Of a stretch of DNA of 42,612 nt, positions 9,658-18,660 are shown piece after piece. The notes below the pieces were generated by a model that worked only from the letters and a program-made list of their open reading frames with translations, did no database searches and had not been told where the DNA came from. How positions within the stretch are numbered: the stretch's first letter is position 1; every line of letters starts with the position of its first letter. Origin of the DNA: a virus (taxonomy: Duplodnaviria > Heunggongvirae > Uroviricota > Caudoviricetes); IMG/VR virus record IMGVR_UViG_3300034691_000069; one strand, 5' to 3'. A program made the position numbers and the translations under genes.

Positions 9658-10062
9658 TTAGGTGGTTGATGTGTTTTTAATCGACAGGTATTGACCCAAG
9701 TAGCTGTAAATTCGTTCTTTCGCAATTGGGTTTTGAGAGTGAACGAAAAAATTGAAGTCTTTAGGCAGAAAGGATGGGTCATCCATATCTTTTTCAACCA
9801 ACCACTTTGCCAGATCAACGCCTTCAAGCTCACGCATAAGGTCATTATCGAAGGAAATGAAGTCAGGGCACCCATTACGTTCAATGTAGTCCTGAGCACC
9901 TTCTACCGTTGCAAACTTGATAATTTCAGTATCTGGTGAATAAGCGATCTTCTCGATCTCATCAGCACCGATCAACGGGTAGTAATAACGTGGATGGCGG
10001 ATCTTGTCGGGATGAAAAGCGTCATCATCCAAGAACAAGAAAATCTTTTTCTTTTCTGTCAT
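9658..10062 (-). CDS. cyclic-phosphate-processing receiver-like domain protein
   Basis: LFLDD...PDFISFDNDL...G-x-D-x-AKWL...VHSQNP motif set typical of this family. Confidence 0.75.
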   Translation of the reverse strand: MTEKKKIFLFLDDDAFHPDKIRHPRYYYPLIGADEIEKIAYSPDTEIIKFATVEGAQDYIERNGCPDFISFDNDLMRELEGVDLAKWLVEKDMDDPSFLPKDFNFFVHSQNPIAKERIYSYLGQYLSIKNTSTT

Positions 10063-15958: not shown

Positions 15959-16039
15959 GGCAATGACCCTGTATGGAATAGCGTTATTATACCAAAGAAA
16001 AGACAAGAAATAAACTCATTTTTGAATCAAAAGAAATAA

Positions 16040-16064
16040 AAAACCCCGAGTTAACGGGGCTTTT
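16040..16064 (-). terminator. terminator closing the peptide/tRNA/minigene transcript
   Basis: GCCCCG-TTAACT-CGGGGT plus T-run. Confidence 0.85.
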
Positions 16065-16107
16065 CTTTATACTAATATTAAGTTTAAATTCTCAATTTTA
16101 TTTGAAT

Positions 16108-16119
16108 TTAGAACTGCAT
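16108..16119 (-). CDS. minigene M-Q-F-stop
   Basis: GTGCCAGAGGTGA-ACTACCG-ATG CAG TTC TAA: strong SD, 7-nt spacer. Confidence 0.6.
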   Translation of the reverse strand: MQF

Positions 16120-16216
16120 CGGTAGTTCACCTCTGGCACTTACTTTAATAGGAACTAAGGGTTAGTCGGCATTCAACAATCATTATACTAGATTCAATTA
16201 TAGATTAAATTAAGTG

Positions 16217-16228
16217 TTAATGCTGCAT
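16217..16228 (-). CDS. minigene M-Q-H-stop
   Basis: GTGCCAGAGGTGA-GCCAATA-ATG CAG CAT TAA: same leader and spacing. Confidence 0.6.
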   Translation of the reverse strand: MQH

Positions 16229-16286
16229 TATTGGCTCACCTCTGGCACACTCATTAAGTAAAAAGTGGTTAATGTTATTTTTAATC

Positions 16287-16371
16287 TGGTGCCCGGTGCC
16301 GGACTCGAACCGGCACTCCTTGCGGAAAGGGATTTTAAGTCCCTCGTGTCTACCAATTTCACCAACCGGGC
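16287..16371 (-). tRNA. tRNA-Leu(UAA), CCA encoded
   Basis: GCCCGGT/ACCGGGC acceptor; AGGGA-CT-TAA-AA-TCCCT anticodon arm; long variable arm; TTCGAGT T-loop. Confidence 0.97.
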
Positions 16372-16377
16372 GTGGTT

Positions 16378-16509
16378 TTATTCTGCGTCTGGATGACGCT
16401 GACGACGCTGGTCACGCATTTGACGGCTGGCTTTGTTATCGCCACGTTTGGAGTTATCTTTCTGCTTGCCTGCAAACTTTTCCATCATGTCGCGGTGAGA
16501 ACCTTGCAT
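16378..16509 (-). CDS. 43-aa basic peptide, family copy 1 (MQGSHRDMMEKFAGKQKDNSKRGDNKASRQMRDQRRQRHPDAE)
   Basis: Translated by hand; AAGGA SD; homologous to 35854 and 39771. Confidence 0.85.
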   Translation of the reverse strand: MQGSHRDMMEKFAGKQKDNSKRGDNKASRQMRDQRRQRHPDAE

Positions 16510-16546
16510 TTTGTATTTCCTTGTGTTGTTTCGTTTTGATGGGTTC

Positions 16547-16575
16547 ATTATATGGAAAAAGTGGGTAGCTGTAAA
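16547..16575 (-). promoter_or_regulatory. sigma70 promoter TTTACA-17-TATAAT for the peptide and tRNA-Leu(UAA)
   Basis: Near-consensus elements followed by a CATCAAAACGAA leader. Confidence 0.85.
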
Positions 16576-16672
16576 GCATTATTTTCGTTTTTTTCTTAAA
16601 AAAAATCCTAAATTTTTGTGTTTATCTTATTGATTTTTAACAAGAAAAAAAAAGGGCCATTCGGCCCTTTTC

Positions 16673-17260
16673 TTAATCATCACTTTCAGTTTCTTCGGCG
16701 TCATAGCATTCGCAATGAGCAACGTAATGTTCAAACAACGCTTCGATGGTTGGAAACTCCTTAGAAGTCATATAACGGCCAGTAAGCTCAATGGTTTTGT
16801 TGGCAGTAAAAACAATGTAATAATCCTGACAGAAAACACGGAACTTTTTGTTACCATGACTGTCCATAGGCTTATAAAGTTCAACCAGTTTTTTGAGTGA
16901 TTCGATGGATTGCTCATTTCTTTCTGCGTCATGCTTAAAGATGAAAACATCACTTGACTTTTGTTCGCTGAATGGGTTATACCCACTCATATACAAACCA
17001 AGAGAGCGAATGAACTTTTCGGCTGCTCGATAACGAATTTCATCGGTGCCGTGACCTTTTTCTTCCATCAAGAAGTCAAAACGCTCCTGTTCAGACTGTT
17101 CCAACAGAAGTGTTGCTTTCGTGATATCTTCTTTGATCAGAGTCATTTCAGCATACAAAACAGATGCTTTCTCTTGAAGTGGCTTAATCTGAGCAAAGAT
17201 CTTAGAACGTTCGTCTTCGATATTTTTCAGTTTTTGAGCTAGTTCTTCAATGACAGACAT
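16673..17260 (-). CDS. hypothetical protein with an N-terminal coiled coil (195 aa)
   Basis: GAGGA SD; cassette context. Confidence 0.8.
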   Translation of the reverse strand: MSVIEELAQKLKNIEDERSKIFAQIKPLQEKASVLYAEMTLIKEDITKATLLLEQSEQERFDFLMEEKGHGTDEIRYRAAEKFIRSLGLYMSGYNPFSEQKSSDVFIFKHDAERNEQSIESLKKLVELYKPMDSHGNKKFRVFCQDYYIVFTANKTIELTGRYMTSKEFPTIEALFEHYVAHCECYDAEETESDD

Positions 17261-17334
17261 GTCGAATCCTCGTTTGATTTCAGCAATTATACATTAATAA
17301 TGAGGATAATGTAAAGAAAATCTAGTTTTTGAAG

Positions 17335-17943
17335 CTAGATTTTTTGAGTGCTATCAATATAGTTCAAATAAGTATCAACTTTCTTTTGAACTGTCGCAAT
17401 CGACTGGGTAAAATCTTTGTGGTGTTCATCACGTTGCAAACAATGCTTAGGGAAGGTCATTGTCACATTCAAACCGATAGCTTCACCAGCAATACCACCC
17501 GCCCAGTCAGCACCTGTTTGACCACCTGAGATAAGGTTAGTCAGCGGCCAGAACTCATGGACTTTGGAAATAACCATATAAACCCACTGGTTCAAGGATA
17601 CTTGGAACTCGTTAATGATTGAACCTTCATCCAAATATTCGAATTTTTGTTTATCCGACAGTTGACCCTGTGACCATTCTCCCGAAAGGGAATAGATACC
17701 ATTCCCCGCTACGTTCAAGGTGGATACATTGTGTTTTTTGCAGGCAGCATAGAGCATACGAGCTGCAACAAGGGGATCTGTGCTCAAATGGATGGCAACA
17801 TAACGATCACCAGCTTCACGCTTGGTAAGTTTTTCACCTGCCGAGCTAAAGTCTTCTGCGAAAGCGACCGTAAGATCTGCAGTATGAGCATTGTGTACAG
17901 TTCTTGGCTTATACTGTGTAGATTCATGTTCGACAATTTTCAT
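17335..17943 (-). CDS. SLOG-superfamily (YpsA/MoCo-carrier/DprA-like) protein
   Basis: RT-x-x-NA-x-x-ADLT, LNVAGN and ISGGQTGAD motifs. Confidence 0.8.
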   Translation of the reverse strand: MKIVEHESTQYKPRTVHNAHTADLTVAFAEDFSSAGEKLTKREAGDRYVAIHLSTDPLVAARMLYAACKKHNVSTLNVAGNGIYSLSGEWSQGQLSDKQKFEYLDEGSIINEFQVSLNQWVYMVISKVHEFWPLTNLISGGQTGADWAGGIAGEAIGLNVTMTFPKHCLQRDEHHKDFTQSIATVQKKVDTYLNYIDSTQKI

Positions 17944-18009
17944 AAAAGCACCCCTTTTTGAATAAGGACATTATACTACAAAAAAGGTAAAATAGGAAAT
18001 GAAAAGCAT

Positions 18010-18033
18010 AAAAAAACCACCCGAAGGTGGTCT
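18010..18033 (-). terminator. UUCG terminator of the tRNA/ncRNA operon
   Basis: GACCACC-TTCG-GGTGGTT plus T-run, about 7 nt after the ncRNA CCA. Confidence 0.85.
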
Positions 18034-18039
18034 TGTGTT

Positions 18040-18206
18040 TGGTAGCTGTTGATGGTGTCGAACCACCAAGTTAGGACTATTTCATAAGTCTCAGAGTACG
18101 TGCGGCCTCGTCTGACTTACTATTTCATCTTCACTCTGCCTCCACATCCACGGTCTTTGATGTTTGCACGTATAACACCGCCAACCGATCCAGTTTAGCA
18201 ACAGCC
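18040..18206 (-). ncRNA. 167-nt tRNA/tmRNA-like structured RNA ending in CCA
   Basis: 7-bp acceptor GGCTGTT/AACAGCT + A + CCA; T-arm GGTGG-TTCGACA-CCATC; stemless 14-nt D-loop with GG; about 110-nt insert in place of the anticodon arm. Confidence 0.75.
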
Positions 18207-18220
18207 AGAAATCTTAAATT

Positions 18221-18305
18221 TGGTGCCCAAGGTCGGACTCGAACCGACACTCCTTTCGGAAGCGGATTTTGAATCCGCCGCGTCTACCAATTTCACCACA
18301 TGGGC
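18221..18305 (-). tRNA. tRNA-Leu(CAA), CCA encoded
   Basis: GCGGA-TT-CAA-AA-TCCGC anticodon arm; long variable arm; one U-U mismatch at 6:67. Confidence 0.95.
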
Positions 18306-18328
18306 GTATGTGTTTCTCTACTCTTTAT

Positions 18329-18367
18329 GCGTTGCAGTGTATCAAGGTTTAGACAAGACTGCAACGC
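18329..18367 (-). promoter_or_regulatory. promoter TTGCAG-17-TACACT embedded in a 10-bp inverted repeat
   Basis: GCGTTGCAGT / ACTGCAACGC arms, 19-nt spacer, just upstream of tRNA-Leu(CAA). Confidence 0.65.
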
Positions 18368-18391
18368 TTTTTTCTACATTTTCAATAAAAT

Positions 18392-18586
18392 TTATTCCAT
18401 CAAATCTTTTGCAGCCGACTTATAGCCACGGTTCCATGCATATTGCAGCATAGCGTCCAAAGACTTCAACTGATCATCAGTCCAACCCACGGTAGACGGC
18501 AATCTAGCGTTCACAACATCCAGACGCTTATTTTCAGCAGCATCTTCCATAATTTCTTTAACATCATCGTGAATGTAACCAGCCAT
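18392..18586 (-). CDS. hypothetical protein
   Basis: GAGGTG SD before MAGY. Confidence 0.7.
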   Translation of the reverse strand: MAGYIHDDVKEIMEDAAENKRLDVVNARLPSTVGWTDDQLKSLDAMLQYAWNRGYKSAAKDLME

Positions 18587-18660
18587 ACACACCTCAAATT
18601 AAATGGTTGTAGAAGATTATACAATCCCAGTATCATAGCAAAAAACAAAGAAGAAAACAA

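Follow-up and report, generated by a model that had tools for sequence, protein, structure and literature searches.

A conserved neighbourhood of leucine tRNAs, three-codon mini-ORFs and a tRNA-like RNA in a giant phage-like element

Overview

The 2.4 kb that carries two leucine tRNA genes, two three-codon mini-ORFs and a tRNA-like RNA is best read as a conserved neighbourhood and not as one machine, with a probability that we put at about 0.6. Its parts would be about four independent units: a tRNA-like RNA, a SLOG gene, a gene for a 195-aa protein (p195) and a peptide-tRNA-mini-ORF unit. The argument is built on the anatomy of these units, their conservation, the frame-specific stops of the mini-ORFs, purifying selection and the separate occurrence of the parts in relatives; transcription units, RNA processing, translation and every physiological effect proposed below are read from sequence signals. 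The locus lies in a window of 42,612 nucleotides, by which we mean the whole stretch of DNA that was analysed. It belongs to a giant phage-like element from peat, with contigs of 0.8-1.9 Mb, whose viral nature is putative. The surrounding region is of an early type, with genes on a single strand and with dense promoters and terminators.

Nearly every feature reported by the first-pass annotation is present where it had been placed, and all of the listed features lie on the minus strand (Table 1). The order peptide gene, tRNA-Leu(UAA) (6 nt after the stop), MQH-stop, MQF-stop, terminator was recovered, as was the order tRNA-Leu(CAA), 167-nt CCA-ended RNA, terminator, which recurs in four lineages. 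The SLOG gene and the unknown gene described between the two units match PF12694 and phrog_7208, respectively, and the cyclic-phosphate receiver gene is present in the window as a cREC_REC gene. We take the features to be real because they are conserved in related genomes; within the window alone they are not statistically striking.

Table 1. Positions of the features of the locus and of the parts of the 167-nt RNA.
Feature	Position	Strand	Evidence and remarks
p66, 66-aa gene	18392-18592	-	ORF list; directly 5' of the tRNA-Leu(CAA)/RNA block
tRNA-Leu(CAA), reads UUG	18305-18221	-	ARAGORN; Rfam RF00005, 52.7 bits
167-nt tRNA-like RNA	18206-18040	-	starts 14 nt past tRNA-Leu(CAA); ACCA end 7 nt before terminator
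Acceptor stem of the RNA, 7 bp	RNA positions 1-7/157-163		G1.U72
Single-stranded segment of the RNA	RNA positions 8-19
Arm of the RNA	RNA positions 20-24/52-56 and 28-33/43-48
Long helix of the RNA	RNA positions 58-61/130-133 and 69-75/109-115
T-arm of the RNA, 5-bp stem	RNA positions 140-144/152-156		UUCGACA loop; UUCGA(C/U)N across sequences
3' end of the RNA			ACCA, encoded
Unit B intrinsic terminator	18034-18013	-	terminator scan; 7 nt past the CCA end; conserved in L001, L008, L027
SLOG gene (circularly permuted YpsA, cpYpsA), 202 aa	17943-17335	-	separate unit; PF12694, 34.1 bits (cut-off 26.2); phrog_10774
195-aa gene promoter	17315-17286	-	promoter scan
195-aa gene (p195)	17260-16673	-	phrog_7208; own promoter and terminator
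195-aa gene terminator	16674-16647	-	terminator scan
Unit A promoter, TTTACA-17-TATAAT	16575-16547	-	promoter scan, 11/12 matches
43-aa Arg/Lys-rich peptide gene (MQGSH...RRQRH...)	16509-16378	-	first gene of the tRNA-Leu(UAA) unit
tRNA-Leu(UAA)	16371-16287	-	ARAGORN; Rfam tRNA, 59.4 bits; begins 6 nt past the peptide TAA
Mini-ORF element 1	16248-16217 (ORF 16228-16217)	-	GTGCCAGAGGTGA, 7-nt spacer, ATG CAG CAT TAA (MQH, stop)
Mini-ORF element 2	16139-16108 (ORF 16119-16108)	-	GTGCCAGAGGTGA, 7-nt spacer, ATG CAG TTC TAA (MQF, stop)
Unit A intrinsic terminator	16065-16038	-	terminator scan; conserved in the A6 alignment
cREC_REC gene	9658-10062		about 6 kb from the locus

Units of the locus and their linkage

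Scans for promoters and terminators indicated about four independent units in about 2.4 kb. One of them (unit B) would comprise p66, tRNA-Leu(CAA) and the 167-nt tRNA-like RNA, and another (unit A) would be a single transcript with the 43-aa peptide gene, tRNA-Leu(UAA) and both of the three-codon mini-ORFs. The p66 gene, which has no Pfam or PHROG family match, adjoins tRNA-Leu(CAA) in L001, L008, L026 and L027 (tblastn) and is probably the gene with which unit B opens. The SLOG (cpYpsA) protein is predicted to bind nucleotides and would be expressed as its own unit; its 173 homologues carry PF12694. Homologues of p195 form only seven clusters, and its AlphaFold model (pLDDT 82), a long N-terminal helix and an alpha/beta domain, gave no informative structural match. 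No link to translation was found for the SLOG and 195-aa proteins in Pfam and PHROG or, for the 195-aa protein, in structure.

We compared the locus with its counterparts in related genomes. Synteny of the region extends to all close relatives, and selection for short-range linkage is therefore possible. The order p195 then peptide unit is kept in five of five lineages. Gene order otherwise differs among the five lineages, with the SLOG gene on either side of the tRNA-RNA block. In the L009 lineage a 105-aa ORF occupies the syntenic site of unit B, which is missing there; in the more distant G002 and G003, mini-ORFs are present and the sequence examined contains no peptide gene, SLOG gene or RNA. 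Only two pairwise links hold, that of the peptide gene with the tRNA that follows it and that of tRNA-Leu with the RNA that follows it.

The first-pass annotation had joined the tRNA units, the SLOG gene and p195, with the cREC and Pth2 genes farther off, into one coordinated system that would act on the tRNA pool and on ribosome rescue, either to shut off the host or to evade tRNA-targeting defence. Such a system is consistent with the placing of all parts within 2.4 kb, with a neighbourhood kept in the closest relatives, with the cREC_REC gene 6 kb away and with the many translation genes of huge phages (PMC7162821), and in the relative G001 a true PTH2 gene (63 bits) lies about 2 kb from another peptide-tRNA unit, which hints at a wider translation theme. 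We nevertheless consider it improbable: each unit is recurrent, but promoters and terminators are separate, gene order is shuffled between lineages, the RNA does not qualify as a tmRNA and the SLOG and 195-aa proteins are without a translation link. The Pth2-like gene proposed for the window was not found, as none of the 65 window ORFs of at least 90 aa matched PTH2 (PF01981) at E<=1e-3 and tblastn of the G001 PTH2 protein against the window returned nothing (E>=2.5). The dissociation in L009, G002 and G003 is the lack of co-conservation that the annotation itself had named as telling against its module.

The peptide gene and the leucine tRNAs

The 43-aa peptide has no match in Pfam, PHROG, NCBIfam or PDB. 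All of its homologues begin with MQGS and 14 residues are invariant, and pN/pS of about 0.15-0.45 (11 copies) indicates purifying selection. An alternative start that would give 56 aa falls inside the -10 box of the unit A promoter. Six copies of the gene are found in G001. A tRNA gene follows 6-12 nt after the peptide gene in 9 of 12 distinct copies, and in 2 of the 12 the gene is followed by a terminator with no tRNA.

Both tRNA-Leu genes have a cloverleaf with an anticodon arm (ARAGORN, Rfam), and their simplest role would be to decode UUG and UUA. UUG is the commonest leucine codon in the genes of the window (233/717).

A family of mini-ORFs with frame-specific stops

The two mini-ORFs are preceded by an identical 13-mer, and a pair of this kind was reached in 7 of 100 shuffles of the window. 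Element 1 is invariant in five orthologous copies apart from a synonymous CAT/CAC change; the orthologues of element 2 read MQF, MQL, MQL and MPH, and codon 4 is always TAA. Both belong to a family that is represented by 24 distinct elements in no fewer than five lineages. The elements share a 7-nt Shine-Dalgarno sequence (SD), GAGGTGA or a close variant, a spacer of 6-8 nt, ATG, 1-5 sense codons and a stop. The second codon, CAG, is conserved across the family. CAG is the minor glutamine codon in the genes of the window (78/295, 26%), and host codon usage may differ. Members also occur in stand-alone arrays, with their own promoter and terminator and far from tRNAs.

Selection on the reading frame is seen in the position of the stops. 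In frame 0 a stop occurs within 5 sense codons in 24/24 elements and within 3 in 23/24; in frames +1 and +2 the median stop lies at 7-8, and a stop as early is found in only 41% and 26% of sites, respectively (27 short sites including the 24). The stop is the second, third or fourth codon, in one element the sixth, and in every case lies a whole number of codons past the AUG. Its position is retained across changes in codon 3 (H, F, L, N, I, S, Y or none), which include synonymous ones (CAT/CAC, TTC/TTT). In the centroid fold neither the SD nor the AUG is base-paired. The mini-ORFs are members of a selection-maintained family of predicted ribosome-loading sites.

The conserved element spans 26 nt and takes in AGTGCC, 5' of the SD, as well as the spacer sequence CTACCG. 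This exceeds what an SD and a start codon need, and a role at the RNA level or in protein binding is therefore possible. In the strongest form of this view the 26-nt element would serve mainly as a motif at the RNA level or for protein binding, or would be what is left of the 5' half of a tRNA-Leu (GCCCG..GGUGAA), and the reading frames would be incidental; the neighbouring tRNA-Leu does have a loosely similar 5' end. We give that reading little probability, as stops are kept in frame 0 only and codon 3 is free, the Rfam tRNA model gives no match on the elements and no conserved hairpin is predicted.

As ribosome-loading sites the mini-ORFs would most likely act in trans, as sinks like bar or CreT for ribosomes, for a tRNA or for peptidyl-tRNA hydrolase capacity. 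The main alternative is a role in cis, in which loaded ribosomes would shield tRNA or ncRNA transcripts from Rho or RNase, or would time tRNA processing, with the peptide ORF doing likewise. The elements do sit on otherwise non-coding transcripts, in the tRNA trailer in the window, 5' of a structured 3' domain in L034, L029 and L028 and 5' of tRNA-Arg in L036, and the short distance from peptide stop to tRNA in most copies fits as well. A cis role is unlikely in our judgement: in the window both elements follow the tRNA, with about 55 nt of AU-rich RNA and the terminator downstream, and there is therefore little to protect; arrays of up to five copies go beyond what shielding needs; and the conserved CAG second codon would be left unexplained.

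For the trans role we tentatively suggest, as one possibility among several, that the MQx-stop elements are phage-borne minigene arrays, kept by selection, in which start sites of the highest efficiency precede frames of 2-4 codons and which tie up host ribosomes, tRNA or Pth during takeover. Expressed from early-type promoters and from tRNA operons, they might deplete tRNA-Gln CUG or the tRNA of the last codon, and the element's own tRNAs, its CAA-biased codons and, in relatives, PTH2 would shield its own translation. The tRNA-like RNA would then be a second, independent RNA effector.

The 167-nt tRNA-like RNA

The RNA is conserved in four lineages as four variants with mutual identities of 80-92%, always directly 3' of tRNA-Leu and with a terminator next. 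Its p-distance is 0.08-0.20 vs 0.48-0.69 for synonymous sites (pS) in the neighbouring gene, and it evolves 3-4 times more slowly than adjacent synonymous sites. The conserved body of the RNA is 130 nt. In the proposed helices 97.6% of cells are paired, compared with 34-52% when the helices are slid, and three pairs have changed on both sides (23:53, 33:43 and 70:115); support from covariation is thin because there are only four variants, and the observed values were equalled or exceeded in 13-17 of 500 shuffles. The RNA folds with an unremarkable energy (z-score -1.0).

We searched 3.5 kb with Rfam and found no match for the RNA at E<=1, and ARAGORN calls no tmRNA. With a model built from the RNA (R1), genuine tRNAs are the next-best matches, through the ends of the RNA. 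A canonical tRNA was considered as well; the cloverleaf with an anticodon arm is absent, and ARAGORN fits the RNA only at lowered thresholds, as a tRNA-His(AUG) that needs a 72-nt intron, one mismatch and an extra arm of 27 nt without pairing. By analogy with T4 species 1 RNA, the acceptor stem, the T-arm and the encoded CCA would most likely serve for excision of a stable small RNA by RNase P and the tRNA 3'-end enzymes.

Comparison with known systems

The first-pass annotation had called the RNA tmRNA-like, and a part of the likeness stands. As in tmRNA, its tRNA-like domain has an acceptor stem, a T-arm, a CCA end that is encoded and a D-region that lacks a classical D-stem; positions 8-19 are unpaired, and the region contains CUGGAU. 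A miniature rescue RNA, aminoacylated, entering stalled ribosomes and presenting an internal frame, would also agree with GGAG...AUG AAA stop in 3 of 4 variants. We regard such a function as very improbable. The RNA lacks G3.U70, with G1.U72, G2-C71 and C3-G70 invariant in five sequences; the internal AUG AAA UAG/UAA frame is broken in L008, where a 1-nt insertion gives a 12-codon frame; and the proposed P2 helix GUUGG/CUAAC is broken without compensation (GAAGG in L001, GUUUA in L008). Neither ARAGORN nor the Rfam tmRNA models detect the RNA, and no SmpB is among the Pfam matches of the window. At 167 nt the RNA is about half the size of a minimal tmRNA. Huge phages do encode tmRNAs (PMC7162821).

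In position and layout the 167-nt RNA, which appears to be new, is closest to the species 1 RNA (rnaC) of phage T4, without homology. In T4 the tRNA cluster ends with tRNA-Arg, rnaD and rnaC in that order, and here too the tRNA transcription unit ends in a small non-coding RNA placed directly after its last tRNA. A canonical T-arm (CCGGG-UUCGAAU-CCCGG) is found towards the 3' end of T4 rnaC; model R1 scores this RNA at 9.5 bits, by the T-arm only and below genuine T4 tRNAs, and we found no homology in sequence or structure between the RNA and rnaC or rnaD. Unlike the T4 RNAs, which are 139 and 119 nt long, the window RNA has 167 nt, a full 7-bp acceptor stem with an encoded CCA and a different body. 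What species 1 and 2 (rnaC and rnaD), the stable RNAs of T4, do in the phage is still unknown (PMC3014915).

Natural mini-ORF RNAs that sequester tRNAs are represented by CreT, the toxin of CRISPR-Cas CreTA modules (PMC8501985). As with CreT, the active part here would be an efficiently translated mini-ORF on a small RNA, with translation predicted for the present family. CreT uses rare codons in tandem, AGA/AGG or AUA, and has a CreA guide as its partner beside cas genes, whereas the window mini-ORFs contain no tandem rare codons.

Together with CreT, the closest known counterparts of the mini-ORFs are lambda bar and synthetic minigenes of 2-8 codons, in which a strong SD and an AUG are followed by one or a few sense codons and by a stop that is usually UAA. 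With this design, peptidyl-tRNA drop-off and the repeated use of one RNA by ribosomes are both at their greatest (PMC2490762). The present family differs from the bar minigenes in that it is multi-copy and under evident selection, has CAG as the second codon and a 26-nt leader, and occurs in arrays of 2-5 that are often co-transcribed with tRNAs. If the proposed action on host ribosomes, tRNA or Pth is true, the MQx-stop elements would be the first natural physiological role of bar-type minigenes in a virus-like element.

Two parts of the stretch are new: a tRNA-like RNA specific to the clade and a family of conserved minigenes, each a variation on a kind already known. The first-pass annotation had joined tRNAs, minigenes, a tmRNA-like RNA and a basic peptide into one coordinated translation-hijack module; neither the coordinated-module reading nor the tmRNA reading is supported. 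All parts of the stretch are real (see table), and every function we assign to them is one that we infer.

Coordinates of features in the window and in related records
Feature	Location	Strand	Remark
cREC_REC gene	9658-10062
43-aa basic ORF	16509-16378	-	TAA, six bases, then tRNA-Leu(UAA)
tRNA-Leu(UAA)	16371-16287	-	ARAGORN and Rfam
Unit A terminator	16065-16038	-	downstream of both mini-ORFs
tRNA-Leu(CAA)	18305-18221	-	ARAGORN and Rfam
167-nt RNA	18206-18040	-	ends ACCA, 7 nt ahead of terminator
Unit B terminator	18034-18013	-	terminator scan
Stand-alone mini-ORF gene, G001	L034 1150-1880 (~58.9-59.6 kb)	reverse complement	five elements, 200-nt 3' domain
Stand-alone mini-ORF gene, G002	L029 1250-1690	reverse complement	three-element array
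Stand-alone mini-ORF gene, G003	L028 1480-1900		three-element array
Array upstream of tRNA-Arg(UCU), G001	L036 1300-1760 (~183.7 kb)	reverse complement
PTH2 gene, G001	G001:C1:166870-167244 (L051)		63 bits

A conserved minigene family

Unit A runs as first annotated, from the 43-aa peptide gene through tRNA-Leu(UAA), MQH* and MQF* to a terminator, with all elements in place, including the 6-nt gap before the tRNA. Two copies of GTGCCAGAGGTGA lie 3' of the tRNA; ATG CAG comes 7 nt after each, and the frames read MQH* (element 1) and MQF* (element 2). The Shine-Dalgarno sequence is a perfect 7-mer at 7-nt spacing in a region predicted to be unstructured. An internal TAGTATAAT box between the two mini-ORFs gave no promoter call and is degenerate in relatives, and therefore both are treated as tRNA trailer. 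In the orthologous trailers (5 loci) element 1 is invariant from its TTAAT box through ATG CAG CA(T/C), the His codon changing synonymously among the five; in one copy TAA has become AAA, giving MQHKL*. The orthologues of element 2 read MQF, MQF, MQL, MQL and MPH, with TAA as codon 4 in all. The Rfam tRNA model did not match the mini-ORF elements.

The element may bear a loose resemblance to the 5' half of tRNA-Leu. Relatives' contigs from three wastewater and other runs join window position 16140 to 16264 with 14 other letters between; those relatives therefore have one mini-ORF element against the window's two, and copy number varies by unit. Four runs marked 'RNA?' (probably DNA) yielded relatives' contigs only and gave no reading of expression.

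Over all loci we identified 24 distinct elements of the family, including three start-stop forms (ATG TAA); three further sites in the list of 27 short sites were taken for chance matches. Frame 0 meets a stop within five sense codons in 24/24 elements and within three in 23/24, and the stop codon is TAA in 23 of the 24. In the +1 and +2 frames of the 27 short sites the medians are 7-8 codons, and stops as early as this are seen in only 41% and 26%. Early stops specific to frame 0 thus point to constraint on a very short translated frame: selection visibly keeps the family with its frame-specific stops, translation itself being predicted. A pattern scan of contigs from 185,579 species genomes found no member of the family; all nine of its matches arose by chance in coding genes with no relation to it (Variovorax, Roseateles, Bacteroidales and others), and none was a mini-ORF.

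Mini-ORF elements also form stand-alone genes in the related IMG/VR records G001, G002 and G003. Each of these is non-coding: a promoter precedes an ATG TAA element and two to four MQx* elements, and a structured 3' domain comes before the terminator. The genes of G002 and G003 have a common conserved 3' domain, ACGGTGYGG ... TGACAATTTAACGTC ... CCACC. The further array upstream of tRNA-Arg(UCU) places MQH*, two 8-codon acidic ORFs (MKEEFDDI* and MKDEHDDL*) and MQ* in a single transcript, which continues through a GC-rich structured segment and the tRNA to a terminator.

By analogy, known biology supports an effect of such short frames. Behind strong Shine-Dalgarno sequences they promote the drop-off of peptidyl-tRNA and repeated initiation on one RNA (PMC2490762), and CreT RNAs are natural toxins of short-frame design (PMC8501985). 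In the window's genes Gln is encoded by CAA 217 times versus 78 for CAG, and CAG is absent from the 12 commonest second codons (57 genes counted), a bias that fits a CAG-directed sink without proving one.

A tRNA-like RNA behind tRNA-Leu

Unit B probably begins with p66, a 66-aa gene, and its annotated order of tRNA-Leu(CAA), 167-nt CCA-ended RNA and terminator was confirmed by ARAGORN, Rfam, the sequence and a terminator scan. An AU-rich 14-nt spacer separates the tRNA from the RNA; in G001 the RNA sits behind tRNA-Leu(UAG) instead of (CAA), and the conserved spacer travels along. We compared four variants of the RNA, from the window and from loci L001 (identical to L025), L027 and L008 (lineage of L026). 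Their pairwise p-distance (0.08-0.20) is far below the synonymous-site difference of the adjacent SLOG gene (0.48-0.69; nonsynonymous 0.06-0.14), and the RNA is therefore under purifying selection of a strength equal to that acting on protein sequence.

The proposed structure has six helices: a tRNA-like acceptor stem (1-7/157-163) and T-arm (140-144/152-156), an arm of two helices (20-24/52-56 and 28-33/43-48) and a long helix (58-61/130-133 and 69-75/109-115). In the alignment of the four variants it is 97.6% paired, as against 34-52% for slid pairings, and double-sided changes occur at 23:53, 33:43 and 70:115. With four variants, this covariation is suggestive of the structure and falls short of proof; the folding energy of the sequence taken singly is unremarkable. 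After the RNA itself, R1, a covariance model made from the variants, retrieves genuine tRNAs only, via the RNA's two ends, and this is an independent sign that those ends are tRNA-like. In G001-G003 it found tRNAs only and no divergent paralogue. The RNA would be cut out by RNase P and tRNA 3'-end enzymes. Were it to be aminoacylated, its A73 and its place behind tRNA-Leu would point first to LeuRS. With introns allowed, ARAGORN reads it as a tRNA-His(AUG) with a 72-nt intron, a forced fit that is not credible.

The label "tmRNA-like" did not hold. The RNA lacks G3.U70, its internal AUG AAA stop frame, the would-be tag, is disrupted in L008 through an insertion, the variants do not maintain the 'P2' pairing, and neither ARAGORN nor Rfam detected a tmRNA in it.

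Between the p66 stop and tRNA-Leu(CAA), at 18325-18366 (minus strand), lies an inverted repeat of 10 bp, GCGTTGCAGT ... ACTGCAACGC, whose loop is 22 nt long and which has no T-run. It may form a hairpin for processing or stabilisation; at the corresponding spot L008 shows a TATAAT box. R1 also found a 77-nt tRNA-shaped sequence at L041 1501-1577 (G001:C1:129761-129837, minus strand), with a good acceptor stem, T-arm and CCA, an unusual anticodon-loop region and no ARAGORN call.

A basic peptide gene ahead of tRNA genes

Judged from its sequence, the 43-aa protein is real. All homologues begin MQGS, 14 residues are invariant and pN/pS is 0.15-0.45. Some gene callers give a 56-aa form, which we rejected: its ATG falls within the -10 box of the promoter at 16575-16547. 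The gene is multi-copy, with six copies in G001, and among 12 distinct copies a tRNA (Arg-UCU, Leu-UAA or unassigned) follows 6-12 nt after nine and a terminator ends two. The peptide had no match in Pfam, PHROGs, NCBIfam, PDB sequences or the ESM Atlas (best 0.78). Directly 3' of one copy, at L001 11816-11892 (also L044 1414-1490), is a tRNA gene that ARAGORN reports as tRNA-??? with a two-base anticodon, 'ga'.

Separate units with local links

As annotated, a SLOG gene and an unknown gene lie between the two tRNA units. The former is a cpYpsA SLOG gene (PF12694, score above cut-off); the latter, p195 (195 aa, phrog_7208), has its own promoter and terminator and seven homologue clusters only. 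Its confident structure model, a long helix with an alpha/beta domain, gave no informative structural match. The cyclic-phosphate receiver gene placed elsewhere in the window is also present, as cREC_REC. The 'Pth2-like' gene was not recovered: PF01981 (PTH2) matched 0/65 window ORFs, and the true PTH2 protein of a relative, used as a tblastn query, turned up nothing in the window.

Against a coordinated module, the stretch has separate promoters and terminators for its units, and gene order is shuffled: p66, tRNA, RNA, SLOG, p195, peptide in the window and L008; SLOG, p66, tRNA, RNA ... p195, peptide in L027 and L001. In L009 a 105-aa ORF occupies the place of the tRNA-RNA block. The searched sequence of G002 and G003 has the mini-ORFs and lacks the peptide, SLOG gene and RNA, and in G001, which has at least six copies of tRNA-Leu(UAA), intact mini-ORFs follow just one. 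What survives of the module is three local links: p66 goes with tRNA-Leu and the 167-nt RNA, the peptide unit comes after p195, and a tRNA comes after the peptide. G001 carries a genuine PTH2-family peptidyl-tRNA hydrolase gene, with no window counterpart, ~2 kb from a peptide-tRNA-Arg-tRNA-Leu unit. This gene keeps alive a looser idea of a translation neighbourhood, and because of it we regard the first reading as unsupported in part but not in whole.

Relatives and nature of the element

A DNA search of 50,697 phage records matched the tRNA parts alone, and nothing else there resembles the 2.4-kb stretch. The exact 43-aa peptide was found on a JGI contig of 834,842 bp, the window's own, and the window's DNA is present in peat metagenomes. 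Relatives were recovered on several contigs at 78-91% nucleotide identity across alignable blocks. These are G001 (a 290-kb IMG/VR record, also within a 1.54-Mb contig), L008 and L026 (one lineage; contigs of 1.28 and 1.86 Mb), L027 (678 kb) and L009 (a 35-kb contig group). Two IMG/VR records that are further removed, G002 (179 kb) and G003 (437 kb), have only the mini-ORF family in common with the window. An IMG/VR pattern scan returned an already known relative only, and the sole result of the metagenome pattern scan, L024, was a chance match.

The contigs behind L008, L020, L025, L026 and L027 measure 0.68-1.86 Mb. IMG/VR classes these records as viral and labels the 179-290-kb pieces 'provirus'. 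Three hallmark Pfam families (Terminase_6N, Terminase_6C and HK97 capsid) had no match in G001-G003, and we therefore use 'phage' as a working label; megaphage, provirus and giant plasmid are all possible for these contigs.

Comparison with known systems

Knowledge of the lambda bar minigenes goes back to the 1990s; as far as we know they have stayed a laboratory curiosity with no proven natural role. A minigene family under selection, partly in tRNA operons of giant phage-like genomes, offers a test system for deliberate minigene use by mobile elements. There is also a negative lesson, in that translation-flavoured genes close together in the early region of a giant phage are not evidence of a system.

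The best analogue of the 167-nt RNA's layout is the T4 tRNA cluster, which ends tRNA-Arg, rnaD, rnaC; these last two, species 2 and 1, are RNAs of unknown function (PMC3014915). The T-arm of rnaC is canonical. Homology to rnaC and rnaD, looked for with R1, was not found. We know of no function established for the two T4 species in 50 years. The 167-nt RNA, whose stability is predicted, would be the second example after them of a stable RNA ending a tRNA cluster, and a second, unrelated case suggests that this layout is a general route to phage small RNA.
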